Positions 3,001-64,000 of a stretch of DNA of 64,000 nt are shown here, piece after piece. The notes beneath the pieces were generated by a model that made no database searches, had not been told where the DNA came from, and saw only the letters and a program-made list of their open reading frames with translations. The DNA is from Candidatus Omnitrophota bacterium (GTDB lineage Bacteria; Omnitrophota; Gorgyraeia; Gygaellales; Profunditerraquicolaceae): the NCBI GenBank assembly GCA_030650425.1, contig JAUSED010000009.1, positions 142,846 through 206,845 on the forward strand, written 5' to 3'. Within the stretch, counting starts at the first letter, position 1, and each line of letters opens with the position of its first letter. The position numbers and the translations under genes were made by a program.

Positions 3001-4787
3001 CTATCCACAGTCCATCATCTACCATCCTTCAAAACTTAGATTATACCTTCGACCACAACGGTAACCTGACTGATCTAAACGATGCCATAAGGAATAAAAA
3101 GCGTAACTATACTTACGATGACTTAGACCGTTTAATCAGCGCAAAAAATACTCCTGCGCCCGGAGGCCTATATGGAGATTTCTACTATAGCTATAACTCG
3201 ATAGGTAATATGTTTGAAAAAACTGAACCAAACAACTCTACCATAACTATGGGCTATGGCAAGGACGCAGGACCGCATGCTTTAACTAGCGTAGGAAATT
3301 GTAACTACCAATACGATGCCAATGGTAATATGACTGTCGGTAAAAACAAAATTCTTAGCTACGACACTGAGAACCGATTACTGAGCGTAAATGAACAAGG
3401 TATAATCACTTCATTCCTTTATGATGGAGATGGAGGGAGGGTAAGAAAGACCACCGGCTCAAATTCTACCACCTACATCGGCTCGCTCTTTGAAAAGGAT
3501 TCCAGCGGTAAAATCACTAAACATATCTTCGCCGGCTCAAACCGGGTAGCCTCTGCTATAGCGAACCCTGATGGAACTAAACAAACTCTATATTACCACA
3601 GCGATCACTTAGGTTCATCTAACGTGATTACCGATCAAACCGGCTCACTTGTGCAATATTGCGAATACACTCCTTATGGTTCGCTTGCCCGTAACGAAGG
3701 CACTGATGTAGCAACCCATAAATTCACCGGTAAGGAACTGGATAGGACTGGACTCTACTTCTACGGGGCGAGGTATTACGACCCGGAGATCGGCAGATTT
3801 ATTACTGCCGATACGATTGTCCAAGCTCCTTACAACCCCCAAACCTTAAACCGCTACACTTATTGTGGTAATAATCCGATTAATTATGTGGACCCAACGG
3901 GGCATTGGTTCTGGGCGTTAGTTTGGGTAATAATAGAGGCGGTAAAGGCGTATGCCATAGCACATCCTATCATCGCTGGAGCCATTGCAGGTGCAATTTT
4001 TAATACTGCTATGAATGCCTCTAATATCAATAGCTTCGGCAGTTTTATGACTTATGCAGCTATAGGCGCAGTAGCGGGCGCGGCTGGTGGAGGTGTTGGA
4101 GCATATATAGGAGCTAGTAGCGCGTTCTGGGGAACGGCCGCAGGCGCTTTTACAGGGGGATTTATTGCTGGGGCTGGAAACGCAGGTTATGGGGGAGCAA
4201 GCTTTGGCCAAGCTATGCTCTCTGGATTAATGGCTGGCGGTATTGCCGCAGCTACAGCAGTGGTAGTTTATGGAGCAATAAAGGTAGGCGAAAAGATAAT
4301 TTCATCAACGCAAAAGGTAGCCACTGCCCAAGCAAAAGCCGTGGGAGAAAAAACACCAGTAGGACAAAAAGATAGCGGTTTAACTACAGAAGTAGGAAAA
4401 GGCACATCTGGTGATCCCATAATTGATGACCCTGGAGTAAAAAAGACGATGGACAGAGCATGGCAAGAATCACTAGATGGTCAAGCAAACGTACATGAAC
4501 AAGGCGGATGGATAGAAGAACATGGTGGATATCGTTGGCCGCAAGGAGAAAGTGGCAGCATTTCGGTTCCAAACACTCGACCATCTGGAACTATAGCGGA
4601 ATTTCACACACACCCCTATTCATCTAGCGAAAGGTTTTTTCCTGGACCGAGTCCGAGTGATTTTTCAGGATTCAATGATCCATCATCAAGCGTATATGGC
4701 ATAAGACATTTTATTGTAGACAGGCAGGGAGTTATCGAATATCATGCTGATGGAAATTGGAATTATATAAAATCTTCTTCAGATTAA
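1..4787 (+). CDS. Rhs/YD-repeat polymorphic toxin, 5'-partial (continues upstream of window): FG-GAP-like repeats, YD repeats, RHS core, ~294-aa C-terminal toxin tip
   Basis: Frame 3 is open from nt 3 with no stop before the ORF-track TTG at 840. Five DFNGDGxTD FG-GAP-like repeats in 1..700; many YDxxGN YD repeats; RHS core RYYDPEIGRF...YVDPTGH at ~3760..3903; variable C-terminal tip follows. Confidence 0.9.
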   Translation, partial: PIGGDFNGDAKTDVGIYNNTTGELKIILSNGGDAKTSQGSFSAGSTWFNFSGASYSWQPFTGNFNGDKYTDFGLYNVDTGEVKAALGIPPQGAGQAGSGFGPLTTWASSAGGYTALSGDFNADGLTDLCLFKKSSGEFKVAFSNSKSFVDESTWITGYATDKDALVSDFNNDGLTDIGYWDKTTGRWYYAISTGDKFVDKGVWLDSFGSSNDESATTGDFNGNGITDAATFDKDQLGIDRWTTRLSTNQPADLLTEIDNGIGGKTKITYTYAASEDNLGLPFPVYVASSISLINTFPTERAATYTQNFSFSGGYFDTTEREFRGFAKVRVTDPITHNYSETYFYQGKSDETDPFKKDGALKGQIDKVIAYDGSNRKISETVNTYEVKKAGPEDRFLGFPSLKEQNTTVYEENGSSLATKNTFSYDNIGNLTGETSYGDITKTGDEKSTSNTYAQAYSYNTTASSGFNRPLESSLKDKDGNIVTQKNFEYDAKGNLAKDIVLISNPLTSSVVTTQTQYSYDDYGNLTSTTNALGKSVTTEYETDLYTYPAKVTNSLAHSISYIYDPKFGVVKSVTDTNGATSSTTYDSFARPVQVKNAYDQVVTTYTYPDFNTKTTTNAVGLFKTEYIDGLGRKYKAISSGEDGASQRNISSEVFYNERGLTASESLAHYVDEDAGNISYIRYRYDKRGRIAETISDFATPMQETGEPGDYSQLTGKDTFSSISYLTPLYVETTDPLGHRKGTLKDVYGNILEVREFIHADNETKPDGAFHTYYEYDTQNNLTKTTDNKGNTTQIFYDSIGRKLKMIDPDMGTWSYEYDILGNLKKQTDAKGQILTFEYDDLNRLAKKSSLRGSEAAEAISEYFYDDPAKDNCVGRLSKITDLSGSTEFFYDKLGREVKSIKSLRGTEGAGTISYTVQREYDVLDRLTKLTYPDGEAVNYTYDTNSGLLKSLRGTAGTEAISYVQNMSYNAKGQSTNILYGNNVQTTYTYGQDLRLANISTIHSPSSTILQNLDYTFDHNGNLTDLNDAIRNKKRNYTYDDLDRLISAKNTPAPGGLYGDFYYSYNSIGNMFEKTEPNNSTITMGYGKDAGPHALTSVGNCNYQYDANGNMTVGKNKILSYDTENRLLSVNEQGIITSFLYDGDGGRVRKTTGSNSTTYIGSLFEKDSSGKITKHIFAGSNRVASAIANPDGTKQTLYYHSDHLGSSNVITDQTGSLVQYCEYTPYGSLARNEGTDVATHKFTGKELDRTGLYFYGARYYDPEIGRFITADTIVQAPYNPQTLNRYTYCGNNPINYVDPTGHWFWALVWVIIEAVKAYAIAHPIIAGAIAGAIFNTAMNASNINSFGSFMTYAAIGAVAGAAGGGVGAYIGASSAFWGTAAGAFTGGFIAGAGNAGYGGASFGQAMLSGLMAGGIAAATAVVVYGAIKVGEKIISSTQKVATAQAKAVGEKTPVGQKDSGLTTEVGKGTSGDPIIDDPGVKKTMDRAWQESLDGQANVHEQGGWIEEHGGYRWPQGESGSISVPNTRPSGTIAEFHTHPYSSSERFFPGPSPSDFSGFNDPSSSVYGIRHFIVDRQGVIEYHADGNWNYIKSSSD
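2546..2579. repeat. GTCATTGCGAGG...GAAGCAATC palindromic element, copy 1, in frame inside rhs (encodes SLRGSEAAEAIS)
   Basis: gtcattgcgaggcagcgaagctgccgaagcaatc; internal hairpin ggcagc-gaa-gctgcc. Confidence 0.8.
2705..2738. repeat. Same element, copy 2, in frame inside rhs (encodes SLRGTEGAGTIS)
   Basis: gtcattgcgaggcaccgaaggtgccggaacaatc; hairpin ggcacc-gaa-ggtgcc, compensatory relative to copy 1. Confidence 0.8.
2849..2882. repeat. Same element, copy 3, in frame inside rhs (encodes SLRGTAGTEAIS)
   Basis: gtcattgcgaggcaccgcaggtaccgaagcaatc. Confidence 0.8.
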
Positions 4788-5304: not shown

Positions 5305-6567
5305 TTAATTTTCAAGGCGTTGGATAAGCCTTTGGGATTTGATTCTTAAGGTTTCAGCGATAGCTTTGTTCTTTGATAAGAGGCAGGTGGAATCAATGAT
5401 GATAAGAGCCGCAATGGCCTCTTTGCATTGGCCGAGGGAAGCGGGTGAGTCTTGGAGTATCTTGGAGAGACAAGCGTTCTGTTTGATCCAGTAAGTCAAT
5501 GACCAGACTAAGAAGGAAATAATCCAATGACGTTGGATCTGTTCTTGGTCGTGGACTTGATACTGGTCAAAACAGAAGTTGTCTTTAAGTTCGCGGAATG
5601 ATTCTTCAATACCCCAGCGCAGAAGATAAGTATCAATAGCGGTTTTAACGGACATCGCGGGGTTATTGGTAATCAGGACATGCGTATCTTTTTCATCGGT
5701 ATCAGACCATTTGTCAAATATAAAGAAGATTTGTAAAGGGGTAGAACAATCCTTGAGTTTGGATTTGATGGCATAAGTAAATATGTGCTTAACTTTGCCG
5801 TTTTGTTGAAGGATTTCAACATGTTTGAGGCGGTGGGCATAGAATTGTTTGATTAGCGGAATAATTTCCTCAGCGCGCATATGCGCTTGTTGTTTAGTTT
5901 TAGGATGAGCAAAAAAGATAGAACGGTTAATTTTTGTTTCAGCGACGAAAACTAAATTTTTTGAGGCGATGAACTCAATCATCTCAGAGGAAGTGTACCA
6001 AGCATCAAAGACGATACTAGAGAAGGGGATATTTTTAGCGACAGCTTCGCTAATCAGCTCTTTAGCCAGATCAGGTTTACTTTTAAAATTCTCCGGCGGC
6101 TGGCCTTGTACAGGGATATAAGATTTAAAGTTGATCGGGAAGTGTTTAGTGTTGGAGACAAAACAGGAAGCGACGGCGACATTGCAATTTTCCTTTTTGC
6201 CCAAAGAGCCGCAGTATTGGAATTGAGCGCCTTCGGTTTTCTTGGCGTGAGGTTTAGGGCAGCCGGTATCATCAAGGGCGAAGACACCATTGGGCGTGGC
6301 GCGCGTTGTTGATTGATTCTGGATGATTTTAAGGCGCGTGTCATTGAGCTTATTGATATCCCAGGAAGAGTCAGAGAAGAAGTATTGGAGTTTTTGATAA
6401 TGAGTATTTGTTCTTCGGGCGATGGCGGATAATGATAAACGTTTGTAGTCGAAGAACATGCCATAGATAAGTCCGCGTAAGGCGGACATTTGGGTATTTG
6501 AAAAAACAGGCTGGAAGCGCGCAAGAAACTGATCGATAAAACGTAAACGAGCGTTGAAATGAGCCAT
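5305..6567 (-). CDS. DDE transposase, IS4/IS701-like
   Basis: 420 aa with transposase-like architecture; DDTG motif in the catalytic region; antisense shadow ORFs inside it. Confidence 0.7.
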   Translation of the reverse strand: MAHFNARLRFIDQFLARFQPVFSNTQMSALRGLIYGMFFDYKRLSLSAIARRTNTHYQKLQYFFSDSSWDINKLNDTRLKIIQNQSTTRATPNGVFALDDTGCPKPHAKKTEGAQFQYCGSLGKKENCNVAVASCFVSNTKHFPINFKSYIPVQGQPPENFKSKPDLAKELISEAVAKNIPFSSIVFDAWYTSSEMIEFIASKNLVFVAETKINRSIFFAHPKTKQQAHMRAEEIIPLIKQFYAHRLKHVEILQQNGKVKHIFTYAIKSKLKDCSTPLQIFFIFDKWSDTDEKDTHVLITNNPAMSVKTAIDTYLLRWGIEESFRELKDNFCFDQYQVHDQEQIQRHWIISFLVWSLTYWIKQNACLSKILQDSPASLGQCKEAIAALIIIDSTCLLSKNKAIAETLRIKSQRLIQRLEN

Positions 6568-33793: not shown

Positions 33794-34293
33794 GCATAAT
33801 CTATGACGCTTTAAAAAAAGTGCAGAAGAATAATGGCAAAGATGAAACTCCGCAGGAAGAGACCGCCCAACCTGTCAAAACTAAGATAAAAATTAACCCT
33901 ATGCTTATTTATATACTAGTAGTCTGCCTCGGGTTAGCATTAGGCAATCTTGCCTATAATTTTTTTGGCCATTCCAATAATATGGTTCCATCTAACAAAG
34001 AGGTTGCTGGTCAGTCAAAAGCAAACCCTCCCCTTCAAACTCTTAGCCAAACAGGAACAGCTCTACCCCTAAAGCCGGATACTTCCGCTAATCCCACCCC
34101 CCCGGCTAACCCAGAACCAACTCTGGCCTTAAATGGCGTATTCTTTGAACAAGGAGAAGGCTACGCTTTGATTAATAACAAGATTGTCAGGGTGGGAGAC
34201 GAAATCAGCAACGCAAAGGTAAAAGAAATCGCTATAACTGGCGTAGAACTGGAATTTGAGGGTAAAACGATTAAACTTGCCAGCCCTTCTTAG
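33790..34293 (+). CDS. GspB-like protein (partner of ExeA)
   Basis: MSIIYDALKKVQ N-terminus, single TM, Pro/Thr-rich linker; 4-nt overlap with exeA-like gene. Confidence 0.55.
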   Translation: MSIIYDALKKVQKNNGKDETPQEETAQPVKTKIKINPMLIYILVVCLGLALGNLAYNFFGHSNNMVPSNKEVAGQSKANPPLQTLSQTGTALPLKPDTSANPTPPANPEPTLALNGVFFEQGEGYALINNKIVRVGDEISNAKVKEIAITGVELEFEGKTIKLASPS

Positions 34294-35407
34294 ATTGCTT
34301 CGCCACTCGCTTTGCTCGTGGCTCGCAATGACAAAGTATCGCCGCCTCGATAATTTCTAGAGGAACATTCTCTACGATTTTAGTCTTTCCTAATCCGGTA
34401 AGTAAAACCAATCTGTTTTTAGCTCCCCTAAATTTTTTATCCCGGTGAAAAGACTTGATTATGCCTTTAAGGGAGACGCCCTTAATCACCGCTGGAAGCC
34501 CGAATTCTTTTATAAGATTTTCTACTCTTGCTTTTAAACGGCTATTGATCAGGCCCATCTTTTGGCTTATCTCTAAAGCAATCAGCATTCCTAAAGCCAC
34601 TGCCTCCCCATGCGCATACCGGCTAAACCCCGACGCGGATTCAATAGCGTGCCCTAGCGTATGGCCAAAGTTCAAGACCGTCCTTATTCCTCTTTCTTCC
34701 CTTTCATCAGCCTGCACAATATCCGCCTTTATTTTACTGGAAACGCTGACGATATGTTCCAAGGCGGAGTTCTTAAGGCTAAAAATATTTTTTCGCTCAT
34801 TTTCTAAATACGCGAAAAGCCGCGGATCTTTGATTACGCCGTATTTAATTACCTCGGCTAAGCCGGCGCGCAGTTGCCTGAGGCTAAGGGTCTCTAGCAG
34901 CCCAACATCGCTAAGCACCAAACGCGGCTGGTAAAATGCCCCGATTAAGTTCTTCCCCTCTTCCAAGTCAACTGCTGTTTTCCCTCCGATAGCAGAATCT
35001 ACCTGCGCCAGTAAAGTCGTGGGTACTTGCAGATAAGGGATCCCGCGCTTATAGATCGAGGCAACTAACCCGCTTAAATCTCCAACCACGCCTCCGCCCA
35101 AGGCAATAATGAAAGTTCGTTTCTTCAGGTCAAATTTAGCTAAATCTTTAATCACGGCAGATAACACGGGAATGGATTTACTTTTTTCAGTATCGGGGAT
35201 AGTCTTAATCTTAAAATTAAAACCGGTTTTTTCCAATTCCCTGACTAAGGCAGGGAAACATTTATGCTTGACTAAAGGATTAGTAATGATATAAGCGCTC
35301 TTACCCAGATTGAGTTTTTTGATATATTTACCCAACAGGCGGATTGAATTTTTACCTACGACTATATCGTAAGAACGCAAACCCAACTTTAGTCTGATAA
35401 TGCGCAT
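34271..35407 (-). CDS. aroB: 3-dehydroquinate synthase
   Basis: GGGVVGDLSGLVAS...VPTTLLAQVDSAIGGKTAVD; C-terminal ~20 aa are repeat-encoded. Confidence 0.85.
   Translation of the reverse strand: MRIIRLKLGLRSYDIVVGKNSIRLLGKYIKKLNLGKSAYIITNPLVKHKCFPALVRELEKTGFNFKIKTIPDTEKSKSIPVLSAVIKDLAKFDLKKRTFIIALGGGVVGDLSGLVASIYKRGIPYLQVPTTLLAQVDSAIGGKTAVDLEEGKNLIGAFYQPRLVLSDVGLLETLSLRQLRAGLAEVIKYGVIKDPRLFAYLENERKNIFSLKNSALEHIVSVSSKIKADIVQADEREERGIRTVLNFGHTLGHAIESASGFSRYAHGEAVALGMLIALEISQKMGLINSRLKARVENLIKEFGLPAVIKGVSLKGIIKSFHRDKKFRGAKNRLVLLTGLGKTKIVENVPLEIIEAAILCHCEPRAKRVAKQSKKGWQV
34293..34332. repeat. GTCATTGCGAG...GAAGCAATC element (reverse orientation) forming the C-terminal tail of aroB
   Basis: gattgcttcgccactcgctttgctcgtggctcgcaatgac; read on the minus strand it gives ...HCEPRAKRVAKQS at the aroB C-terminus. 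Confidence 0.75.
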
Positions 35408-54853: not shown

Positions 54854-55512
54854 GGTTCACTCACCCCCTCAACCCCGATTTTTTCTTTGACAAAAGATGA
54901 TCTTCCGTATTCCCCGCTAAATTTTCTTATCAACTCAGTGGGAACTATTCTCAAAGAAACACCTAATTCCATACATGCCTCTTGTAAGCCCAATTCTTTT
55001 TGCTTTAAGTCTATGGTAGCAAAACACCTAACTTTTTTAATTGAGCATTTAACCCTACTCAAGGCATATCGCACTCCCTTAATGATCTCCTTTTTATCTA
55101 TACCGCGACGGCAACCTATACCGATGACTAATTTTTTACGGGATTCGGAAGCTGTGGTCACAACCGGCTGAGCACCTAAGCTATTTGCAACTTTGATCGC
55201 CAAATTGTTCGCGCCGCCTTCATGGCCGGATAAGAGGCTAATCGCAAAACGTCCCTCTTCGTCCACTACGACTACTGCCGGATCGCTATATTTATCTTTT
55301 ATATAGGAAGCGATAACCCTAACCACAATACCCGCAGCCATACAGAAGACGATCCCTTCGTATTCAGAGAATAGTTTTTGCGCTAAATCCCTTAGCCCGC
55401 CCTTCAATGACAAAGCATATACTTTGCATCCCGGAATACTCTTTTTAATCCTTAAAGCTGCATGCTTACCTTTTTTGGTTATCGCGACAATAGCGACCTT
55501 CATCCCGCACAT
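54763..55512 (-). CDS. cbiG: Cobalt-precorrin-5A hydrolase
   Basis: MKVAIVAITKKG...VVTTASESRKKLVIGIGCRRG. Confidence 0.7.
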   Translation of the reverse strand: MCGMKVAIVAITKKGKHAALRIKKSIPGCKVYALSLKGGLRDLAQKLFSEYEGIVFCMAAGIVVRVIASYIKDKYSDPAVVVVDEEGRFAISLLSGHEGGANNLAIKVANSLGAQPVVTTASESRKKLVIGIGCRRGIDKKEIIKGVRYALSRVKCSIKKVRCFATIDLKQKELGLQEACMELGVSLRIVPTELIRKFSGEYGRSSFVKEKIGVEGVSEPCALIVARNPKLILAKTKIGRVTVAVAREA

Positions 55513-55519
55513 TCTTTCT

Positions 55520-55630
55520 TATAGGGGACACTTTCCTTTAGTCATAGGGGACACTTTCCTTTTGGGTGTTCCCTGATAGCCCTGACGGAAAATGTCCCCT
55601 TCTGGGCTGATGGAAAGTGTCCCCTGCTGT
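55520..55630. repeat. Cluster of two nested/tandem GGGGACACTTTCC...GGAAARTGTCCCC hairpin units
   Basis: Left arms at 55524 and 55547; right arms at 55597 and 55612; loop ctgatagccctgac. Confidence 0.85.
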
Positions 55631-56381
55631 TAGCCCTCTTCCTAAACATATGCCCAAAATCCTTAGCGTACAGTTTAGATTTTTGGTAATTCTTTTTGAA
55701 AACATCCCCAATGATGATTAAAGCCTGGCGGTTAATCCCTGCCATTTTAACTTTTTTTACGATATCCCGCACTGTACCGGTTATTTTTCTTTCCTGCGGC
55801 AGGGAAACTTTTTCGATCACGGCAACCGGCGTATTCAATCCATAGCTTTTCTTTATTTTTTTTACCACGTCTTCTATTCGGTCAATACTTAAAAAAATAA
55901 CCAAAGTAGCTCTAATCCGGGCCAATCTTGCCAAATCCTCTTTTACCGGCACTTTGGTTCTGCCTGAAATTCTAGTCAATATCACTGTCTGGCTGACTCC
56001 GGGAAGCACAAGCTCCTGCCTCAAGCTCGCGCTAGCTGCCTGAAAAGAACTTACTCCCGGAATAACTTCATAGGCTATCCGCTCTTTTTCGCACCAATCC
56101 ATTTGTTCTTGAATCGCGCCATAGATAGACGGATCGCCGCTATGCATTCTCGCTATAATCTTATCACTATGCTTGTGCTCTTTAAAAACCCCTAACACCT
56201 CATCTAGGTTCATACTGCTGGAATCATAAAGCCGCGCGTCTTTCTTAGCTAATTTAATTATATCTTTATTGATTAACGAACCAGCATAAATGACAATATC
56301 GGCTTTTTCAATAATCTTCTTTGCTTTAATCGTCAACAATTCAGGGTCACCGGGCCCGGCGCCGATAAAATAGACTTTCAT
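55542..56381 (-). CDS. cbiF: Cobalt-precorrin-4 C11-methyltransferase
   Basis: MKVYFIGAGPGDPELLT...IYAGSL; last ~30 aa (NSRGHFPSAQKG...) are repeat-encoded. Confidence 0.8.
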   Translation of the reverse strand: MKVYFIGAGPGDPELLTIKAKKIIEKADIVIYAGSLINKDIIKLAKKDARLYDSSSMNLDEVLGVFKEHKHSDKIIARMHSGDPSIYGAIQEQMDWCEKERIAYEVIPGVSSFQAASASLRQELVLPGVSQTVILTRISGRTKVPVKEDLARLARIRATLVIFLSIDRIEDVVKKIKKSYGLNTPVAVIEKVSLPQERKITGTVRDIVKKVKMAGINRQALIIIGDVFKKNYQKSKLYAKDFGHMFRKRANSRGHFPSAQKGTFSVRAIREHPKGKCPL

Positions 56382-57211
56382 TCCGCACCTACTTTTGGAT
56401 AGGGGACACTTTCCTTTAAAGGGCTTCGCGATAGCGCTGATGGAAAGTGTCCCCTGCGGTTGGGGTTTGGAAAGTGTCCCCTTCGACTGATGTTTCTCAC
56501 TATAATTACCGAAAGGTATCCTAAATTTTTATCCTCCAGAGAAGCGAGATCCCTAACAATCCTTTCATTAGCTTGTCCTGCATGGCTAATCAGCACTGAA
56601 GAAGCTAAAAGTTTCATCTTTTTAAGAAGCCGGATAATACTCTCTAACTTTGAGCCTATTTTCATTAATACCACTGTGTCAAATTCTTTTAGGGCTTCCT
56701 TTAAGCCTTTAAGATTCTTGACTACTGGTAAGATAGCCATTTTTTCATCACCCTTTAAGAGAGGTAAACCAATAGATGCCGCCGCGGCGCCAAACGCGCT
56801 AATTCCCGGAATAGTCTCTGTTTCCAGATAAGGAAAATTACTGCGCAGGGTCTCTAGAAGGTAAATATAGGTACTATAGATAAATGGATCCCCTATGGTA
56901 ACAAATGCGGCAGCCTTATTCTTTTTTAATTCCTCAACAATTATCTTAGCTGCGTTTAGCCAATAAGATTGCAGCTTATTCTTATCCTTAGTCATCGGAA
57001 AAGTAAGTTCAATAAAATTCTTATCTCCCAAAGCAAGTGCCTCTACTATGGAGCGGGCGCAAGATTTTCCGCCTTCGCTTGCCTTAGGAACAAAAATCGT
57101 CTTAACTTCATTGAGTATTTCTTTTGCCCTTAAGGTAAGCAGCTTTGGGTCACCCGGCCCAATACCTACCCCATAAAGTTTGCCCTTTATTTCGTTACTA
57201 CCATTACGCAT
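56378..57211 (-). CDS. cbiL: Cobalt-precorrin-2 C20-methyltransferase
   Basis: LYGVGIGPGDPKLLTLRA; C-terminal ...RRGHFPNPNRRGHFPSAL tail is repeat-encoded. Confidence 0.75.
   Translation of the reverse strand: MRNGSNEIKGKLYGVGIGPGDPKLLTLRAKEILNEVKTIFVPKASEGGKSCARSIVEALALGDKNFIELTFPMTKDKNKLQSYWLNAAKIIVEELKKNKAAAFVTIGDPFIYSTYIYLLETLRSNFPYLETETIPGISAFGAAAASIGLPLLKGDEKMAILPVVKNLKGLKEALKEFDTVVLMKIGSKLESIIRLLKKMKLLASSVLISHAGQANERIVRDLASLEDKNLGYLSVIIVRNISRRGHFPNPNRRGHFPSALSRSPLKESVPYPKVGAE
56400..56485. repeat. GGGGACACTTTCC hairpin unit with duplicated right arm
   Basis: Left arm 56402..56414; right arms 56442..56454 and 56469..56481; loop cgcgatagcgctga. Confidence 0.85.
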
Positions 57212-57807
57212 AAGCCAAATCCTCGCATTTTAGATAAACTTATTAAATTAGTCTTAACTATCCGTTCATCAGCATAGCTAAGATTCTCAAAGACAACCGT
57301 CTTTCTATTTTTTATCCCCCGTTCAAGTAAATATCCCGCAATTTTTTGAGGAGGAAATTTTCGATCGGTAAGCAAAAATACCTTAGCGGCAGCATTTACT
57401 TCTTCCGCTAAATTGCCGGGGGGCCGGCCATGAACACTGATAATCTTGGCGTCTTGCCAGCTTTCACCCATCCTGGCAAAGGCAAGCTGGAGCGTGCTTA
57501 TTCCCGGGATAATTATATATTCTTTTTTCTTTAAAATCAATTCTACCTGCCGTAGAAAACTGTACAGTCCCGGATCTCCTGAAACCAGAAGAACGATCCT
57601 TTTCTTATCTTTATTCTTTTTTATAAATGAGCCGGCTTCTTTAAAATGTCCTTCAAGGTATATTTTTTTTTGATCCGGAGAATAAAACTGCGCTAATATG
57701 CGCTTTGCCCCGATTAAACAATCCGCCTTTTCTATTTCCCTGATGGCTGCAGGAAGTAAATAGTCAAGTGTTCCCGGGCCTGCTCCGATGATATACAGTT
57801 TAGACAT
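57187..57807 (-). CDS. cbiE: Cobalt-precorrin-7 C5-methyltransferase
   Basis: MSKLYIIGAGPG...; start placed at the internal ATG 57807 (the ORF-track start at 57834 lies inside the repeat). Confidence 0.7.
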   Translation of the reverse strand: MSKLYIIGAGPGTLDYLLPAAIREIEKADCLIGAKRILAQFYSPDQKKIYLEGHFKEAGSFIKKNKDKKRIVLLVSGDPGLYSFLRQVELILKKKEYIIIPGISTLQLAFARMGESWQDAKIISVHGRPPGNLAEEVNAAAKVFLLTDRKFPPQKIAGYLLERGIKNRKTVVFENLSYADERIVKTNLISLSKMRGFGLCVMVVTK

Positions 57808-57812
57808 ATTTA

Positions 57813-57970
57813 TGCATCTTGTTGTAGGGGACACTTTCCTTTAAGCCGTCTCTTATAGCTCTGACGGAAAATGTCCCCTGCGGTTGTGCATCTTGTTGTA
57901 GGGGACACTTTCCTTTAAGCCGTCTCTTATAGCTCTGGTGGAAAGTGTCCCCTTCCGGGGTCCCCTACGG
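57813..57970. repeat. 74-nt tandem duplication, each unit carrying a complete GGGGACACTTTCC...GGAAARTGTCCCC hairpin
   Basis: tgcatcttgttgtaggggacactttcctttaagccgtctcttatagctctg(a/g)(c/t)ggaaa(a/g)tgtcccc occurs twice, period 74. Confidence 0.85.
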
Positions 57971-59040
57971 CTTTTAGGATATTCTGCTAATACCTCTCCC
58001 TGCAAGGAAAGCAGCACGCAGTCAATCGAAAGCTGATGATTTACAAATTCATTCAGCACATCTACCGTTCTTTTTGCGAGCATATCAAAAGTCCGCGTAA
58101 ACTTGTGTTTCTTTAATATATCAACAGCGGCTTCGGCTGATACTTGTCTGGACACCTCTTCAATAATCTCTTTTCCCGCTCCGCAAAGCAAGGCAAAATT
58201 CGCGATTGTCTTGATACGATTATCCCCGAATTTGATATTGGTGTCAAGCTGGCCATGCGCAACCTTCACTAATTTACCAATATAACCTACCAAAAGCACT
58301 TTTTTTATTTTCTTATTCAAGCATTCAGAGAGCATAAATCCGACATGGTCCCCAATTTTGACGATGGAATCCGGTTTAAGTTTAAGCCTTTCTTGACAAA
58401 ATTTTTCTCCCACATACCCTAAAACAAGAGTAGCCCTTCTATATCCCGCGGCCTTCAGCACGTCGAGTTGAAGAGATAAAGATGTCTTGTAGGCATCCGT
58501 TGATTTAGGCTCGACTATCCCGGTTGTACCGATTATAGATATGCCTCCCACAATGCCCAGCCTGGCGTTAAATGTGCGTTTGGCTATCTCCCTTCCTTTG
58601 GGAACGCTGATGATCGCCTCGATCCCTTTCCCTTGGTGGAGTAGATGCCTGACAATTTCTTTAAGAATCATCGATCTTGGCGTAGGATTAATCGCGTATT
58701 CGCCGACTCTCACCGCTAATCCCGGCTTGGTAACTATACCAACTCCTTCTGCGCCTCGCAAGAAAATCCCTTTTTTCCCGGAATATTGCACCCGCGCACA
58801 GATCCTAACGCCATTAGTTACATCAGGATCATCTCCGGCATCTTTAATTACCCCGCACTGAGCAAAATCCCTGCCTATTTTTTGGCCAACGATCTTCAGC
58901 TTAAGCTTTACGCCTTTAGGAGTTTCCACCTCAACGCTTTTTACCGGCTTTTTGGCGGCAAGCATAAGGCTCGCGGCTTTAGCAGCTGCCTGAGCACAGG
59001 TACCGGTGGTAAATCCTTTCCTTAGTGGTATTGAGTTCAT
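57853..59040 (-). CDS. cbiD: Cobalt-precorrin-5B C1-methyltransferase
   Basis: LRKGFTTGTCAQAAAKAA; C-terminal ~35 aa are repeat-encoded. Confidence 0.8.
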   Translation of the reverse strand: MNSIPLRKGFTTGTCAQAAAKAASLMLAAKKPVKSVEVETPKGVKLKLKIVGQKIGRDFAQCGVIKDAGDDPDVTNGVRICARVQYSGKKGIFLRGAEGVGIVTKPGLAVRVGEYAINPTPRSMILKEIVRHLLHQGKGIEAIISVPKGREIAKRTFNARLGIVGGISIIGTTGIVEPKSTDAYKTSLSLQLDVLKAAGYRRATLVLGYVGEKFCQERLKLKPDSIVKIGDHVGFMLSECLNKKIKKVLLVGYIGKLVKVAHGQLDTNIKFGDNRIKTIANFALLCGAGKEIIEEVSRQVSAEAAVDILKKHKFTRTFDMLAKRTVDVLNEFVNHQLSIDCVLLSLQGEVLAEYPKSRRGPRKGTLSTRAIRDGLKESVPYNKMHNRRGHFPSEL

Positions 59041-59957
59041 TGTGTTAATTGAGTCGTAGGGGACACTTTCCTTTTGAGAGTCCCCGGATAGCCCTGACGG
59101 AAAATGTCCCCTTCTGCGCGCCCTACGGTTGGTAAACTCTTTATAGCTTCTCTTGCCTCACCAATAGTAAGCGGAAGGCTGTTAAAATTAAATCCATCTT
59201 TTTTCCTTAAAATCTCGAATAAATGCCCTATGCGGGGTAATCTCAATTTGGCCTCCCGGATTACCTGGGCCTGAGAAAAAACATTTTCGGGCTTACCATC
59301 AAGTATAATTCTTCCTTGATTTAAGATAATCACACGATCGATGAACAAAGGCACCAGATCCACAGAGTGCGTGGACATCACCATAGTGATTCCATTTTCT
59401 TTGTTTAATTTTCTCAATAGCCGCATAATGGCGCTCGCTCCCATCGGGTCCAGGGATGAAGTTGGTTCATCCAAAAGCATCACCTCCGGCCCCATAGCTA
59501 AAACGCCGGCTAAACAAATCCTTTTCTTCTCGCCGAAACTTAAATTATGTATAGGCTTATCAGTAAATTCTAACATACTGACCGCGCCAAGCGCGTACTC
59601 TATTCTTTTAGAGACCTCCTCTTTGGTAAGCCCCATATTCACCGGGCCAAAGGCGATATCTTCGCCTACGGTCGAAGCAAACAGCTGGTCATCGGGATTT
59701 TGAAAACAAGTACATATTTTTCTAAATAGCATATCCTTGTTGATGGATCTAATATTCTTCCCTTCCAAATAAATCTCGCCTTTCGCGGTTTTTAGAAGGT
59801 GGTTCAGTATTTTTAAGAGCGTTGTTTTACCGGAACCATTGGCGCCTAAGACACCTAAAAACTCACCTTTCTTGACCGAAAGATTGATACTCCGCAAAAC
59901 GGATTTTCCGTCAGGATAACTAAAGTGGAGATCTTTTGCTTCCAGAATATCGACCAT
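59037..59957 (-). CDS. cbiO: Cobalt ECF transporter ATPase component
   Basis: GANGSGKTT, LSFGEKKR, LLDEPTSSLD; C-terminal ~25 aa are repeat-encoded. Confidence 0.8.
   Translation of the reverse strand: MVDILEAKDLHFSYPDGKSVLRSINLSVKKGEFLGVLGANGSGKTTLLKILNHLLKTAKGEIYLEGKNIRSINKDMLFRKICTCFQNPDDQLFASTVGEDIAFGPVNMGLTKEEVSKRIEYALGAVSMLEFTDKPIHNLSFGEKKRICLAGVLAMGPEVMLLDEPTSSLDPMGASAIMRLLRKLNKENGITMVMSTHSVDLVPLFIDRVIILNQGRIILDGKPENVFSQAQVIREAKLRLPRIGHLFEILRKKDGFNFNSLPLTIGEAREAIKSLPTVGRAEGDIFRQGYPGTLKRKVSPTTQLTQ
59053..59130. repeat. GGGGACACTTTCC hairpin unit with extended outer stem CGTAGGG...CCCTACG
   Basis: Arms at 59059..59071 and 59099..59111; loop ccggatagccctgac. Confidence 0.85.
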
Positions 59958-59998
59958 AAAATTATTGCTAATTAGTTAATGCTGAAAAACCCTCTTTT

Positions 59999-60090
59999 CG
60001 TCATTCTGAGGACCCTGAGTGTAACGAAGGGGACGAAGGATCTCAAGAGATTCTTCGTCGTCCGCCTGCGGCGGACTCCTCAGAATGACG
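59999..60090. repeat. GTCATTCTGAGGA...TCCTCAGAATGAC composite palindromic element (~92 nt)
   Basis: 13-bp perfect outer inverted repeat; inner hairpins gacgaagga.../...ttcgtc and gtccgcc-tgc-ggcggac. Confidence 0.8.
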
Positions 60091-60820
60091 ATAGGAAGAG
60101 ACTGTTCAATATTAAAAGCGCCCCTAAAATTATAATGAAAATGATAACGGCGGCAGTATCTTTGAAACTAAACTCTTTTTCTCCGGAGATATTCCGCGTC
60201 GAACCGTCGTATCCGCGCAGCAGCATAGATTCATATACCGCGATCGAGCGATCATAGGCCCTGATCACGGTTGAGCCCATTAATTCGCCAAAAGATTTCA
60301 AACTCCGGCCTAAACTGCTGTATCCTAAACGCGCTCTTTGGGCATTCCTGATCGTAACCGCGTCCTCCAGCAATACAAAGCTGTAGCGATAACTAAGCAT
60401 AGCTATCTCAACCCAGGTATTCGGCACTTGAAACCAGCGGGCCGCATGGAGCAGCTTATTTACCGGCGTGGTCATCGATAAGCATATAATTAAAGAAACG
60501 GCGCCTAAGACCCTTGCCACAATTAAGAAACCGGCTGCCAATCCATCGGCCATTCCATAAAAGAAGATCTGCATAATAAAAATCGCGCCTACCACACCCA
60601 AGGGGACGGCTAATCTAAGTAGAATAATCTTCGGCGGTATGCCGATCCCTAAAAGGATAACCAAAGATGAGAAAAAAACAATCAATGGCAGATAAGCATT
60701 ACGCGAAGAAACTACGATCATTATAGCCGCGGCTATAAAAAGCGCCTTGGCTCTCGCGTCCACCTCCGTTAAATAGTTTACCTTTTGAGCAAAATGATCA
60801 CTAAATACTTCGTTCAGCAA
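60080..60820 (-). CDS. cbiQ: Cobalt ECF transporter T component
   Basis: Multi-TM CbiQ pattern; 7-nt overlap with cbiM-N start. Confidence 0.7.
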   Translation of the reverse strand: MLNEVFSDHFAQKVNYLTEVDARAKALFIAAAIMIVVSSRNAYLPLIVFFSSLVILLGIGIPPKIILLRLAVPLGVVGAIFIMQIFFYGMADGLAAGFLIVARVLGAVSLIICLSMTTPVNKLLHAARWFQVPNTWVEIAMLSYRYSFVLLEDAVTIRNAQRARLGYSSLGRSLKSFGELMGSTVIRAYDRSIAVYESMLLRGYDGSTRNISGEKEFSFKDTAAVIIFIIILGALLILNSLFLSSF

Positions 60821-61986
60821 TTATGTCCCTTTTTCTCGGTAAAAAGCTTTCTAAAATTATAACCCATTACAAATCCTCCTGCCGCGCCTGCCAGAAGGAA
60901 AACAAAAAGCAACAGATCCCCTTGGTCGGTATTGATAAACGGCGTCCAGGCAGGCCGTCCATGTTCCGCGCTAATCTTCTCCACCACGCTCTCATCTACT
61001 CCGCTCCATTTAGGTAACAGTTCAACTAGCAAAAGAACTCTGTCGTAGGGGATGTCGTAGGGGACACTTTCCTTTTCAGGGCTTCGCGATAGCGCTGATG
61101 GAAAGTGTCCCCTGCGGTTAGGGCTTAACGCGCGCGAAGACAAGACGGCTATTGACGCAGGGGCACTTTCCTTTGAGTCTTGAGGGGACACTTTCCTACT
61201 CGCGTTTACTACTTGTTGGAAAGTGTCCCCTATGCGTGGAAAGTGTCCCCTACGGTTAAGGTTTAACGCGAAGGCAGGCTGGCTATTGGCGCATAAAAGC
61301 AGGCATATGAATAGAACGCCTATACTCTTTTTTACCACTCCCAGCGAAACTAAAATCTCAGGCCTTCTTTTATAGACAAAAACAATCATTCCCCCGGTCA
61401 AAAATCCCTCTAATATGCCTAAAGGAAGTTGCGTAGGAATAAAGGCAATCAGTACAGTGTAAAAAAGCGCTAACATCGGTTTGCTTCCATGAAGGGCCGA
61501 GGCCAATTCCAAGGAAGTTGTGATATAGGTAGCCCAATCCGCTAAAAGCCCGGCTGCAAATCCACAAAAGAATAAAGGAAGTTTAAATTTTCTTAATATC
61601 TTGAATGCGATGAAGGCGGCAAATGAACCGGCTATACCCATAGATACAATATCCGCGCCCCAAGTAGTCAGGCCGCCATGGGCTAAAAATAAAGCCTGGA
61701 TAAGCAAGGCAATGGAAGTTACAAATATGCTCATTATCGGCCCGATTAAAATGGCTGATATTCCGGTTCCGGCAGGATGAGAACAGGTGCCAGCGGTAGG
61801 CACAGGCACAGGCATACAGGAGATAACAAAAACAAGGGCTCCCATCAGCCCTAAAAGAGGTTTAAAACTTGGAGTTAGTTTTACCTTCTTCTTTATATCA
61901 AAGATCCCCTTGATCAGAAAAGGAGCGGCTAGCGCAGACCAGATACCAGCCCACCACAAAGGAAGAATCCCTTCTGAAATATGCAT
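60814..61986 (-). CDS. cbiMN: CbiM fused in frame to CbiN through ~250 nt of repeat sequence
   Basis: N-terminus MHISEGILPLWW... (CbiM); C-terminus ...GVDESVVEKISAEHGRPAWTPF...LLLFVFLLAGAAGGFVMGY (CbiN); no stop through 61040..61292. Confidence 0.65.
   Translation of the reverse strand: MHISEGILPLWWAGIWSALAAPFLIKGIFDIKKKVKLTPSFKPLLGLMGALVFVISCMPVPVPTAGTCSHPAGTGISAILIGPIMSIFVTSIALLIQALFLAHGGLTTWGADIVSMGIAGSFAAFIAFKILRKFKLPLFFCGFAAGLLADWATYITTSLELASALHGSKPMLALFYTVLIAFIPTQLPLGILEGFLTGGMIVFVYKRRPEILVSLGVVKKSIGVLFICLLLCANSQPAFALNLNRRGHFPRIGDTFQQVVNASRKVSPQDSKESAPASIAVLSSRALSPNRRGHFPSALSRSPEKESVPYDIPYDRVLLLVELLPKWSGVDESVVEKISAEHGRPAWTPFINTDQGDLLLFVFLLAGAAGGFVMGYNFRKLFTEKKGHNC
61040..61292. repeat. 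Largest cluster of GGGGACACTTTCC-family units: two copies of a ~110-nt composite unit, inside the cbiM-N reading frame
   Basis: Arms at 61060, 61100, 61159, 61184, 61218, 61238; direct repeat gg(t)taacgcg...ggctattg(a/g)cgca at 61116..61160 and 61253..61292. Confidence 0.85.
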
Positions 61987-61987
61987 A

Positions 61988-62629
61988 TTATAGCTCCCCC
62001 CTCTCTCTTTCGGCTATTTTTAACAATGCATTCACGCAAGCTACGGTTTCACTGCTTCCTCCGTATCTGCTTTTATTGGTAATATAAGGAATATCTAAAG
62101 TTCGCAATTTTTTCTTAGCCTCTTTAGCTCCTACAAAGCCTACAGGCAACCCAATGATCAAGGCAGGCCTTGTTTTGCCTTGACTAACCAACGCGCAAAC
62201 TTCAAATAACGCGGTGGGGGCATTACCGATAGCCACGATTCCGCCATTCATTAATTTATGGGCCTTTCTCATCGCCAATATGGAACGCGTAATATTTAAA
62301 CGGGAGGCTTGCTTCAGGATATCAGGACTATGCATAAAACAAATTATCTTACCCCTGAAACCCGATAATATTTTTTGGTTAATTCCGGCTCCAACCATAC
62401 TCGCGTCTACAACAATATTCTTCCCTTTTCTTATCGCCAAGAGCCCCTCTTTTACGGCCTTTGGATGGAACACAAGATCTTTGATATACTTTAAATCGCT
62501 GGTTGCATGCAGCACTCTTTTTAAGACCTCTTTCTGAGGTTCTGGTAATTTTACATTCTTTAAATATCGATCGACTATTTTGAAGCTCTTGGCTTGGATA
62601 TCCTTCGGATTAGTAATTATTCTCACCAC
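61988..62629 (-). CDS. cbiC: Cobalt-precorrin-8 methylmutase
   Basis: IVAIGNAPTALFEV signature. Confidence 0.8.
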   Translation of the reverse strand: MVRIITNPKDIQAKSFKIVDRYLKNVKLPEPQKEVLKRVLHATSDLKYIKDLVFHPKAVKEGLLAIRKGKNIVVDASMVGAGINQKILSGFRGKIICFMHSPDILKQASRLNITRSILAMRKAHKLMNGGIVAIGNAPTALFEVCALVSQGKTRPALIIGLPVGFVGAKEAKKKLRTLDIPYITNKSRYGGSSETVACVNALLKIAERERGEL

Positions 62630-63293
62630 CTAAAGCCTCCTCTACTATATCTAGGGCTATATCAACGATCCTTTTGTCTGCACCCAAGTTTTTTGTATAG
62701 CTAAAATTGACTTTTGGGTATTTTGCTTTTTCTTCTTTAATCATATAGGGGATATCGCGTGTCACATGATTGCCGTTAAAGAGAAAAAATGGAATGATAA
62801 TTACTTTCCGGCATCCTTGCGTGATAAGCTTTTTCACGCCTTTTGCTAAATCAGGCTGGGCAAGCTGAAGGTAGGCGGAAACAACCTTATTTAATCCCGT
62901 CTTTTGCTTAACCGCCTTAACCGCTGCCTCTAGATTAACGTTTGCTTTTTTTAATCTGCTGCCATGGCCAAGAATAATAATCCCTATTTCGGAATTATTT
63001 GGATTAGATTGCTTCGCTCCCTTCGGTCGCTCGCAATGACGACGAAACGTTTCTTCTTCTATGCGGATTTTATTATTTCTAATCAAAGTGAATATGTTTT
63101 CTGTAACTTTTCTTTTATGGATCCAGCTGCAGGATGCGCAAGACCAGATACCCTCCTTACGCTTAGCTGAATACACAAAACTACCCTTTTTCCCATCCAA
63201 ACAAGGATAAAATGGGCAATAACAAAAGGTGCAATCTTCTAATCCTTTGTGGCAGGGGAAAAACTTACAGGCCTTGTTTAGTCTATTAAGCAT
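62610..63293 (-). CDS. cbiX: Cys-rich N-terminal domain fused via a repeat-encoded linker to small-form sirohydrochlorin cobaltochelatase CbiX
   Basis: N-terminus CKFFPCH...CTFCYCPFYPC...CASC; linker RHCERPKGAKQSNP from repeat at 63008..63040; C-terminus IIILGHGSR...IIPFFLFNGNHV (CbiX). Confidence 0.7.
   Translation of the reverse strand: MLNRLNKACKFFPCHKGLEDCTFCYCPFYPCLDGKKGSFVYSAKRKEGIWSCASCSWIHKRKVTENIFTLIRNNKIRIEEETFRRHCERPKGAKQSNPNNSEIGIIILGHGSRLKKANVNLEAAVKAVKQKTGLNKVVSAYLQLAQPDLAKGVKKLITQGCRKVIIIPFFLFNGNHVTRDIPYMIKEEKAKYPKVNFSYTKNLGADKRIVDIALDIVEEALGGENNY
63008..63040. repeat. GTCATTGCGAG...GAAGCAATC element (reverse orientation), in frame inside the Cys-rich/CbiX gene
   Basis: gattgcttcgctcccttcggtcgctcgcaatgac. 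Confidence 0.75.
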
Positions 63294-63343
63294 AGTTTAT
63301 TCTTGATAAATAGATAAATAGGGACAGCGCCCATTTTTTTAGC

Positions 63344-64000
63344 TTAACGAACAGAAAAAAAATGGGCGCTGTCCCTATTTATCCTACAGCTGTTAATAAA
63401 GTTTTTAGCGAAATCCGTATTAGAGGCAAAATGCAGATGCGCGTAGCTGGCTAAAACGTTCTTAGTGACTAAACCGTCGTAAAATAGATTATCCTTGTCT
63501 TTGATGATTCTATAGGCAAAGGTAGAATTTTTAGGAATATTCGTAAGGCGCGACCAGTGGAAGAGATGCGCCCGATTTCTATCACCTTGATTACTCAATA
63601 TATTATCTTTGATCACCTGTACATTCACATAACCCATCCTATGCAACCTGTTACCCATATTCACTGAGCATTTAAATACCCCCACCATAGGGAATTTTCT
63701 TTTTTGGAAATCGATTAAATTTTTGACTAAATACATTAATCCGCCGCATTCGGCATAGATCGGCAGGCCATCTTTAGCTTTTTGATAAATCGACTGCCTG
63801 AGGCTTGCGTTCTTCGATAAATCAGAGGCAAAAACTTCCGGAAACCCGCCGCCAATATATAAACCATCGATCCCCTTCGGTAATTCCCTATCCCTCAAGG
63901 GGCTAAAGGTAACAATCTCTGCCCCCAAATGCTTCAATATATCCAGATTGTCCTGATAATAAAAATGAAAAGCCTTATCCTTGGCAATCGCTATCGTCAC
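63344..64000 (-). CDS. cbiA: Cobyrinate a,c-diamide synthase, 3'-partial (glutamine amidotransferase domain only; N-terminal part beyond window end)
   Basis: KDKAFHFYYQDNLDILK...GLYIGGGFPE...AECGGLMYL GATase-1 pattern; ORF open to the window edge. Confidence 0.75.
   Translation of the reverse strand: MTIAIAKDKAFHFYYQDNLDILKHLGAEIVTFSPLRDRELPKGIDGLYIGGGFPEVFASDLSKNASLRQSIYQKAKDGLPIYAECGGLMYLVKNLIDFQKRKFPMVGVFKCSVNMGNRLHRMGYVNVQVIKDNILSNQGDRNRAHLFHWSRLTNIPKNSTFAYRIIKDKDNLFYDGLVTKNVLASYAHLHFASNTDFAKNFINSCRINRDSAHFFSVR

Follow-up and report, generated by a model that had tools for sequence, protein, structure and literature searches.

An ancestral PF04071-CbiX fusion protein with a REP-like palindromic element in its linker, encoded in a B12 operon of Omnitrophota

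Small-form CbiX enzymes (CbiXS) are homodimeric chelatases of 120-145 aa (PMC7689651). In the related protein CfbA, His9 and His75 are strictly conserved metal/catalytic residues and Glu42 is described as "well-conserved", while Co2+ is held by the two histidines alone (PMC8179277). Bacillus megaterium CbiXL carries a C-terminal extension with a 4Fe-4S motif (MXCXXC) and a His-rich segment; this extension is dispensable for catalysis, and a function in metal storage or delivery has been proposed for it (PMC7689651).

Palindromic repeats of the CGTC-tagged REP superfamily are 20-40 bp long, with a stem of 8-9 bp and a loop of 4-5 nt (PMC3733652). TGTC is a frequent form of the tag, a stem opening with A-T pairs precedes a short tail, and the repeats often form dimers and are in some cases intragenic (PMC3733652, Di Nocera et al. 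2013). The Rickettsia palindromic elements RPE-4 and RPE-6 belong to the same superfamily, for which the authors found no dedicated transposase (PMC3733652).

The window analysed here is a stretch of 64,000 nt from a MAG contig of a Candidatus Omnitrophota bacterium. The ORF list and Pfam matches revealed a single unbroken ORF (62610..63293, minus strand) encoding a protein of 227 aa, which matches P0001, a protein annotated in a Candidatus Omnitrophota MAG, with 100% identity. A preliminary description of this DNA had proposed that the ORF joins a Cys-rich domain to a small-form CbiX. The ORF and all of its named motifs (CKFFPCH, CTFCYCPFYPC, CASC, IIILGHGSR and FFLFNGNHV) were found, and the two-domain composition was borne out by Pfam: the N-terminal part matches PF04071, "zf-like" (aa 6-73; E 1.4e-22; 79.8 bits versus a cutoff of 27), and the C-terminal part matches CbiX, PF01903 (aa 110-213; E 6.8e-29). 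The zf-like domain, delimited by Pfam, a 91-sequence alignment and AF2 modelling, comprises aa 1-83 (63045..63293, minus strand). It is followed by an inter-domain linker of approximately 19 aa (aa 84-102; 62988..63044, minus strand; RRHCERPKGAKQSNPNNSE), distinguished by low pLDDT and by its variable length in homologues, and by a small-form (CbiXS/CfbA-like) class II chelatase (aa 103-222; 62628..62987, minus strand), assigned from Pfam and PDB matches. In the full-length AF2 model, pLDDT is approximately 85-96 over aa 101-170, falling towards the C-terminus, and below 50 in the linker (aa 81-96); the zf-like domain reaches only 26-56 in this model (46 homologues), in which no inter-domain docking is readable. 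Between the palindromic element described below and the GIIILGHG motif there is no in-frame ATG, GTG or TTG codon from which a separate CbiX could arise by internal initiation.

The CbiX part is a single domain of approximately 120 aa, and its nearest PDB sequence matches are the N-terminal half of SirB, CfbA and CbiXS. It shares the alpha/beta architecture of A. fulgidus CbiXS and M. jannaschii CfbA (PDB 2xwq, 1tjn, 6m25), as well as their catalytic histidines: H110 (62964..62966) and H176 (62766..62768), both invariant in 46 homologues, align with His9 and His75 of CfbA, and their counterparts in A. fulgidus CbiXS are His10 and His74. Unlike these archaeal enzymes, the window protein has a bacterial (Omnitrophota) host, an N-terminal PF04071 domain with a linker, and a glutamine (Q143) in place of Glu42, the Gln being invariant at that position in the homologues. 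Since the Co2+ of CfbA is bound by the two histidines only, this replacement is compatible with cobalt. The NCBIfam CfbA equivalog model scored 81 bits, versus a cutoff of 120. Judging from its sequence, the CbiX domain should dimerise into a sirohydrochlorin cobaltochelatase active site with H110 and H176; homology and the location of the gene within a cbi operon point to insertion of Co2+ into sirohydrochlorin as its probable reaction. As CbiXS enzymes are homodimeric, two zf-like modules would be present per active site.

The zf-like domain is a clear member of the PF04071 family, whose pattern of eight cysteines and two histidines (C9, C14, H15, C21, C24, C26, C31, C52, C55 and H59) is invariant in the 91-sequence alignment; on the basis of this invariance, we propose that the domain probably binds metal. 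It closes with a helix (aa 61-82), and when modelled alone by AF2 it forms a beta-hairpin (38-51) and helices 61-73 and 75-82, with pLDDT of 85-94 in the final three 10-residue blocks and approximately 55 in the Cys-rich loops. The PDB yielded no relative of the domain, and the literature search yielded no paper on PF04071 or the cysteine-rich small domain; the PF04071-CbiX architecture as such is already present in databases. By analogy with CbiXL, a sirohydrochlorin cobaltochelatase that also has an accessory Cys-rich extension, the module may serve an accessory function, either in redox or in the handling of metals or corrinoids. The parallel has its differences: the CbiXL extension is C-terminal and has no homology to PF04071, and the core of that enzyme is the duplicated large form.

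PF04071 domains also occur as standalone proteins. A query with the zf-like domain only retrieved 29 of these, 74-123 aa in length and with identities to the window domain of up to 77%. In two of the three genomic contexts examined, the standalone gene is located directly 3′ of btuFCD-like transporter genes (Peripla_BP_2, FecCD and ABC_tran). In the third (locus L084), what appears to be the remnant of a truncated cbiX, encoding GVIILSHG, comes after the stop codon of the standalone gene; this remnant is below the size detectable in a CbiX profile search. A 41-aa ORF fragment 3′ of it may resemble RayT, but gave no match to Pfam or NCBIfam. In GTDB genomes, standalone zf-like genes adjoin cobU and cobT, cbiB, a gene for a CobQ/CbiA-type amidotransferase, or btuF-like genes. 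Overall, the fused or neighbouring corrinoid-pathway partners of PF04071 comprise CbiX, a tetrapyrrole methylase, CobQ/CbiA-type amidotransferases, a CobD-like aminotransferase, cobU/cobT, cbiB and the btuFCD-like transporter genes.

The linker of the fusion protein contains a copy of a palindromic element with exact head and tail motifs ((C/T)GTCATTGCGAG...CGAAGCAATCTN), which spans 36 nt, i.e. 12 codons (63005..63040, minus strand). Without its two-base tail, this copy is GTCATTGCGAGCGACCGAAGGGAGCGAAGCAATC (63007..63040, minus strand), and the coding strand from 63040 to 63007 can be divided into GTCATTGCGAG-CGACCGAAGGGAG-CGAAGCAATC. It is translated as (R)HCERPKGAKQS(N), that is, 11 full codons (H86-S96) flanked by partial codons for R85 and N97. 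The preliminary description had attributed a 13-residue linker to translation of the element, which is correct for the residues of the 11 full codons (11-12 of the approximately 19 linker residues) and not for all 13.

Further copies were identified in the window by a motif scan. One of them, of 42 nt (34291..34332, minus strand, or 34293..34332 without the two-base tail), lies within the aroB ORF (34271..35407, minus strand; DHQ_synthase and DHQS_C matches). As had been suggested, this copy forms part of the C-terminal tail of AroB (HCEPRAKRVAKQS): the protein ends with ...AILCHCEPRAKRVAKQSKKGWQV, and the element makes its last ~20 residues, read ...CHCEPRAKRVAKQSKKGWQV. Three 36-nt copies (2546..2581, 2705..2740 and 2849..2884, plus strand) are placed in-frame in the middle of an ORF for a 1315-aa RHS-repeat protein, where they are read in a different frame from the linker copy (SLRG..EAIS). 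An inverted doublet of a variant element occupies the intergenic region between cbiQ and cbiO (60000..60089), with the pattern CGTCATTCTGAGG...CGAAGAATCTC (closing motif CGAAG(G/A)ATCTC). These counts (five copies plus two variant ones) cover 64 kb of the contig of approximately 290 kb. Five occurrences of the 11-nt head were counted in the window versus 0.65 expected, and the head followed by 8-25 nt and the tail occurs four times versus 0.00 expected (100 shuffles). In four of the five window copies, the element folds into an outer ATTGC/GCAAT stem and a variable inner stem, with DNA z-scores of -1.5 to -2.3; the inner stem of the linker copy is degenerate (DNA fold z = +0.22). When the conserved two-base tail is included, the copies within ORFs are 42 nt (aroB) and 36 nt (the other four) long, each length being divisible by three, and direct translation showed that five of the six frames of the element are free of stop codons.

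The element is not confined to this genome. Inverted doublets of it were found in two other Omnitrophota loci (L009 and L013), and a scan of metagenomes detected it in contigs of 28-70% GC, at least 120 in number; one of these (L149) contains a 121-nt tandem array of inverted doublets. When these metagenome loci (at least 120) were examined for in-frame copies, stop-to-stop ORFs were unreliable in high-GC contigs, and element lengths showed no bias towards multiples of three. The first base of the tag is C in 75 and T in 69 of the 152 metagenome copies. In the window, L009 and L013, counting by eye gave the tag CGTC in approximately 10 of 16 copies, among them the linker copy, and mostly TGTC in the others.

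These features resemble those of the CGTC-tagged REPs and Rickettsia RPEs, with which the element shares the CGTC/TGTC tag, inverted dimers, and some intragenic copies translated in-frame. Its 34-42 nt stem-loop agrees with theirs in part: the stem opens with A-T and T-A pairs and there is a short tail, but the pairing is interrupted, with 5 bp on the outside (ATTGC/GCAAT) and an inner portion that varies, instead of one stem of 8-9 bp; its hosts are Omnitrophota and many other taxa. The sequence of the element was not found in the text of PMC3733652, and a search of the literature on palindromic repeats of Omnitrophota/Omnitrophica retrieved no paper mentioning Omnitrophota. The REPIN/RAYT system likewise involves inverted doublets of a REP-like unit, as observed for the element in the window (60000..60089), L009, L013 and the tandem array of L149, but the tag is GTAG there and CGTC/TGTC here. 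A regular-expression screen of the window ORFs, a weak test in itself, identified no HUH/Y1 (RAYT-like) motifs. No transposase was linked to the element, which is presumably mobile. The element is best read as a REP-like, CGTC/TGTC-tagged repeat, and as a new example of a known intragenic class.

To establish the age of the fusion, homologues of the whole protein were collected from 5.8 billion proteins. Of the 173 retrieved, the best 120 (46-71% identity, 201-254 aa) were examined for domains, and every one of these 120 is a fusion of PF04071 and PF01903; proteins annotated as originating from Margulisiibacteriota and Poribacteria MAGs are among them. The linkers are not conserved. In 116 homologues they range from 7 to 59 aa (modes 14, 18 and 25; the window linker measures 31 aa in the same way), their sequences are unrelated, and the peptide encoded by the element is present in none of them. 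The DNA of 15 fusion loci (two syntenic cbi operons, described below, and 13 others; 165,348 bp) contains no copy of the element with one mismatch allowed, versus approximately 13 expected at the density of the window. When the linker inserts of other homologues (e.g. PERQWFGVQYSQSH) were considered as candidate repeat elements, 12-mers proved to be shared across all loci at about chance level. The suggestion that a mobile palindrome had fused two formerly separate cistrons is contradicted by these fused homologues, their unrelated linkers and the element-free loci.

The region around the insertion can be aligned with that of the relatives. The helix ending the zf-like domain is conserved in the homologues (consensus like LIRKNKYRIKKETF; LIRNNKIRIEEETF in the window protein) and is followed by a basic, variable linker. 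The segments flanking the element, NNKIRIEEETF and ...SEIG, have homologous counterparts in the linkers of fused relatives. In a neighbour-joining tree with gappy columns left out, the window protein is sister to P0003, within a clade of 36 members, all of them fused. P0003 is itself a fusion, with a 17-aa linker and approximately 70% identity to the window protein. DNA alignment revealed a block of 42 nt (TCGTCATTGCGAGCGACCGAAGGGAGCGAAGCAATCTAATCC; 63001..63042) that is present in the window and absent from P0003, with the flanking codons aligned; this block contains the 36-nt element, and the exact boundaries of the insertion are therefore uncertain. No empty-site relative with identity above 71% was found, so the insertion is deduced from comparison with this sister of approximately 70% identity. 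The P0003 linker (..DSRKQPQ..) bears a likeness to the tail of the element that is too short to identify it as a decayed remnant.

Only one locus was found in which the two domains are encoded by separate genes. In L013, from an Omnitrophica MAG, a separate zf ORF (5989..6240) ends with ...NINPDKRK-TGA, and the ATG of cbiX overlaps its stop codon (ATGA). This locus is distant, nested among fused proteins of another clade in the neighbour-joining tree, and its zf/cbiX junction lacks the element. Adding a single A to the run AAAAGAAAATGA would bring the two parts back into one frame, and the split may represent either a real secondary fission or a homopolymer error of assembly. Both the split locus L013 and the truncated locus L084 appear to derive from fused forms.

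The fusion gene is part of an operon encoding the anaerobic, early-cobalt-insertion B12 pathway. Upstream of it is the C-terminal part of cbiA/cobB, cut by the end of the window (63344..64000, minus strand; Pfam GATase_3), and downstream is cbiC, encoding precorrin-8X methylmutase (61988..62629, minus strand; Pfam CbiC, E 1.9e-69), which overlaps the fusion gene by 20 nt. These are followed by a gene for a CbiM-CbiN fusion (60814..61986, minus strand; Pfam) and, on the same strand, by cbiQ, cbiO, cbiD, several tetrapyrrole methylase genes and cbiG. The gene order is matched in two syntenic operons (cbiA-zfcbiX-cbiC-cbiMN-cbiQ-cbiO-cbiD...), L081 (12 kb), which encodes P0014 (71% identical to the window protein, with almost no linker), and L082 (20 kb), which encodes P0013. 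The cbi genes of these relatives overlap, without spacers, and no copy of the element was found in either operon.

Comparison of each gene with its L081 and L082 orthologues revealed in-frame insertions specific to the window in 8 of the 12 cbi genes. Besides the zf-cbiX linker insert, these include a 7-aa insert in the tail of cbiA (NRDSAHF; palindrome 63311..63382), two inserts in a loop of CbiN (81 aa in all), C-terminal extensions of approximately 28-35 aa in cbiO, cbiD and two methylase genes, and a 9-aa N-terminal extension in another methylase gene; all are absent from L081 and L082. Most operon insertions are built from a second repeat family, GGGGACAyTTTCC, which is translated as RGHFP or KESVPY and of whose 22 cores in the window 17 are situated in the cbi region. 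Most simply, insertion would be widespread and survival under selection limited to copies at termini, loops and linkers, among them the linker copy. A more far-reaching scenario, which we regard as rather unlikely and of which the linker insert would be one part, is that two palindromic families have spread through a translationally coupled B12 operon into nearly all junctions and permissive sites, and that translation of their copies supplies 8 of 12 proteins with tails, loops or linkers. These would constitute selfish coding DNA, similar to the Rickettsia RPEs, in a free-living candidate phylum, with some segments (His-Cys-Glu) perhaps co-opted, and one of the families would be a CGTC/TGTC-tagged REP that crosses phyla, its termini being conserved across contigs of 28-70% GC.

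Taken together, the PF04071-CbiX fusion is very probably ancestral, and the REP-like element a later, tolerated insertion into its linker in this Omnitrophota lineage. A Cys/His-rich PF04071 module is tethered to a small-form CbiX by a variable, disordered linker, and a 36-nt copy of the widespread CGTC/TGTC-tagged REP-like element would have entered this linker after the fusion existed, adding approximately 12 residues, probably with neutral effect. Three properties would account for the survival of the insertion: a length divisible by three, the lack of stops in five of six frames of the element, and a linker that tolerates changes of length and sequence. The opposite order of events, in which adjacent zf-like and cbiX cistrons were separate in the direct ancestor and an element at their junction removed the stop codon, is highly improbable. 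A split arrangement with an ATGA overlap does exist in one Omnitrophota genome (L013), but that locus is distant, free of the element at the junction and possibly the product of a 1-nt homopolymer error. Standalone zf-like genes with up to 77% identity to the window domain are also known, but the examined ones adjoin btuFCD-like or cob genes and not cbiX, apart from the cbiX remnant of L084. The small probability that we retain for the linker as a former junction is due to the repeats of the operon, which mostly sit at gene junctions; against it, the element is also found mid-gene in the RHS protein, all 36 clade members, including the sister P0003, are fused without it, and fused relatives have linkers homologous to both of its flanks.

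Co-option of the element-encoded segment, with His-Cys-Glu and the basic KGAKQS serving as a metal ligand site or a tuned tether, would be compatible with the position of H86, C87 and E88, which immediately follow the Cys/His-rich domain, with the terminal motifs having stayed intact despite the decayed hairpin, and with the accessory metal-binding extensions of other class II chelatases, such as the 4Fe-4S/His-rich tail of CbiXL (PMC7689651). We nevertheless consider it improbable: the segment occurs in no homologue, and the relatives function with linkers down to 7 aa. The AroB tail, moreover, acquires HCE in the same frame simply from the sequence of the element, and with a single sequence carrying the segment, a signal of conservation is not measurable. 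It is also very doubtful that the insertion inactivated the gene, leaving a pseudogene in a decaying operon overrun by repeats. The repeat insertions in 8 of 12 cbi genes, and the concentration of 17 of 22 GGGGACAyTTTCC cores that makes the cbi region a hot spot, would fit such decay, but all of the insertions keep the frame and lie at termini or in loops or linkers, with no frameshift or stop. The family-invariant residues, including the catalytic histidines and all Cys ligands, are intact as well, and the flanking genes share 64-79% identity with their orthologues along the entire length.

The comparison corrects an attractive but wrong inference, as the palindrome did not create the fusion. 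Instead, the locus provides a comparative example of how a short REP-like element can persist in genes, through a length divisible by three, stop-free frames, and sites in linkers, loops and termini. Insertions are dense in this Omnitrophota B12 operon, and peptides of repeat origin, for example HCE..KQS, SLRG..EAIS and RGHFP, are to be expected in annotation. Two points are worth keeping: the operon-wide colonisation by translated repeats, which, to our knowledge, may not have been described before, and the association of PF04071 with B12. The PF04071 domain recurs with corrinoid-pathway genes and, being uncharacterised, merits biochemical work as a candidate cobalt- or corrinoid-handling module.

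The gene encoding the fusion of a zf-like domain (PF04071) with small-form CbiX (zf-cbiX; 62610..63293, minus strand) lies in an operon with numerous repeat-derived coding segments. The junction between cbiA and zf-cbiX, which is an overlap in relatives, is occupied by a long near-perfect palindrome (GATAAATAGGGACAGCGCCCATTTTTTT ... AAAAAAAATGGGCGCTGTCCCTATTTATC; 63311..63382). The right arm of this palindrome encodes the NRDSAHF tail of CbiA, and its core, GGGACAGCGCCC, was found again at 41787. A second palindromic repeat family, with the core GGGGACAyTTTCC, occurs mostly as inverted pairs, and 17 of its 22 cores in the window fall within the cbi region. On the minus strand of the cbi operon (55500..61270), translated repeats of this family constitute the C-terminal tails of CbiO, CbiD and two tetrapyrrole methylases (RGHFP, KESVPY, KGTFS), and none of these tails is present in the orthologues encoded by the syntenic operons of two relatives (L081 and L082). 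The same repeats form inserted sequence (61012..61266) inside cbiMN (60814..61986, minus strand), whose product, a CbiM-CbiN fusion protein, is 390 aa long in the window versus 342-345 aa in orthologues. The 81 extra residues are placed past the first CbiN transmembrane segment and correspond to approximately five GGGGACAyTTTCC units (LNLNRRGHFPR..., LSPNRRGHFPS...).

The REP-like GTCATTGCGAG element, one copy of which lies in-frame in the zf-cbiX linker, is also found in other settings. Three copies (2546..2884) are located within an RHS ORF (840..4787, plus strand, 1315 aa), where they are in-frame, read SLRG(S/T)..(E/G)(A/T)IS and are spaced approximately 150 nt apart, in successive RHS/YD repeat units. 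Between cbiQ and cbiO, a variant of the element (CGTCATTCTGAGG...CGAAGGATCTC / ...CGAAGAATCTC) is present in the intergenic region as an inverted doublet (60000..60089), an arrangement that is REPIN-like. Metagenome contig Ga0207055_1035 (L149, 3908..4975) carries a 121-nt unit repeated in tandem 8.8 times at 97% identity, each unit consisting of two GTCATTGCGAG elements arranged as an inverted doublet. Since the 11-nt head and 10-nt tail of the element are exactly kept across at least 120 metagenome contigs with GC contents of 28-70% (loci L087-L206), these sequences suggest a very broad, cross-phylum REP family.

Lineage-specific in-frame inserts, differing between lineages, are also present in the zf-CbiX homologues of other lineages. 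They are located in the linker (P0058, P0063, P0070, P0074, P0092, P0098, P0033 and P0079), at the N-terminus (P0005, P0015, P0048 and P0059) or within the zf domain (P0023 and L007, the latter with 30 aa); examples include PERQWFGVQYSQSH and NPVRNYSATQKKQDVSNGA, as well as the N-terminal LNPVRDKTPKASALPLARISN. The linker and the N-terminus of zf-CbiX appear to be recurrent permissive sites.

The zf-like domain and cbiX are encoded by two ORFs in the Omnitrophica MAG Hainich-H51-bin231 (L013, 5989..6620), where they share an ATGA stop/start overlap. Addition of one A to AAAAGAAAATGA would join them, so this split reflects either real fission or a homopolymer error. A standalone zf-like gene, whose product shares 77% identity with the domain of the window, was found in a contig of GCA_017973895.1 (L084, 650..1223). 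After this gene come a sequence resembling the remains of a truncated cbiX (GVIILSHG), simple-repeat DNA rich in GGTAAAAG and the first part of an ORF (MSRPLRIHLPDLIYHVLNRGNNRQNVF...). This ORF may resemble RayT/IS200-like Y1 transposases, but it had no match in the Pfam or NCBIfam profile search.

Within the CbiX domain, Q143 (62865..62867) aligns with Glu42 of the small class II chelatase CfbA, a "well-conserved" metal ligand. Gln is invariant at this position in the zf-CbiX family, whereas the related chelatase SirB has Glu. Q143 might mark metal specificity.

Standalone PF04071 loci (L085, L086, L014, L015, L019 and L021) were also considered. At some loci the zf-like gene is placed directly 3′ of btuFCD-like ABC transporter genes (Peripla_BP_2, FecCD, ABC_tran); other positions are between cobU and cobT, after cbiB, and after a gene for a CobQ/CbiA-type amidotransferase. 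The fusion partners of PF04071 in archaea are TP_methylase, CobQ/CbiA-type amidotransferases or a CobD-like aminotransferase. On the basis of these neighbours and fusion partners, the uncharacterised domain PF04071 is consistently associated with corrinoid pathways.
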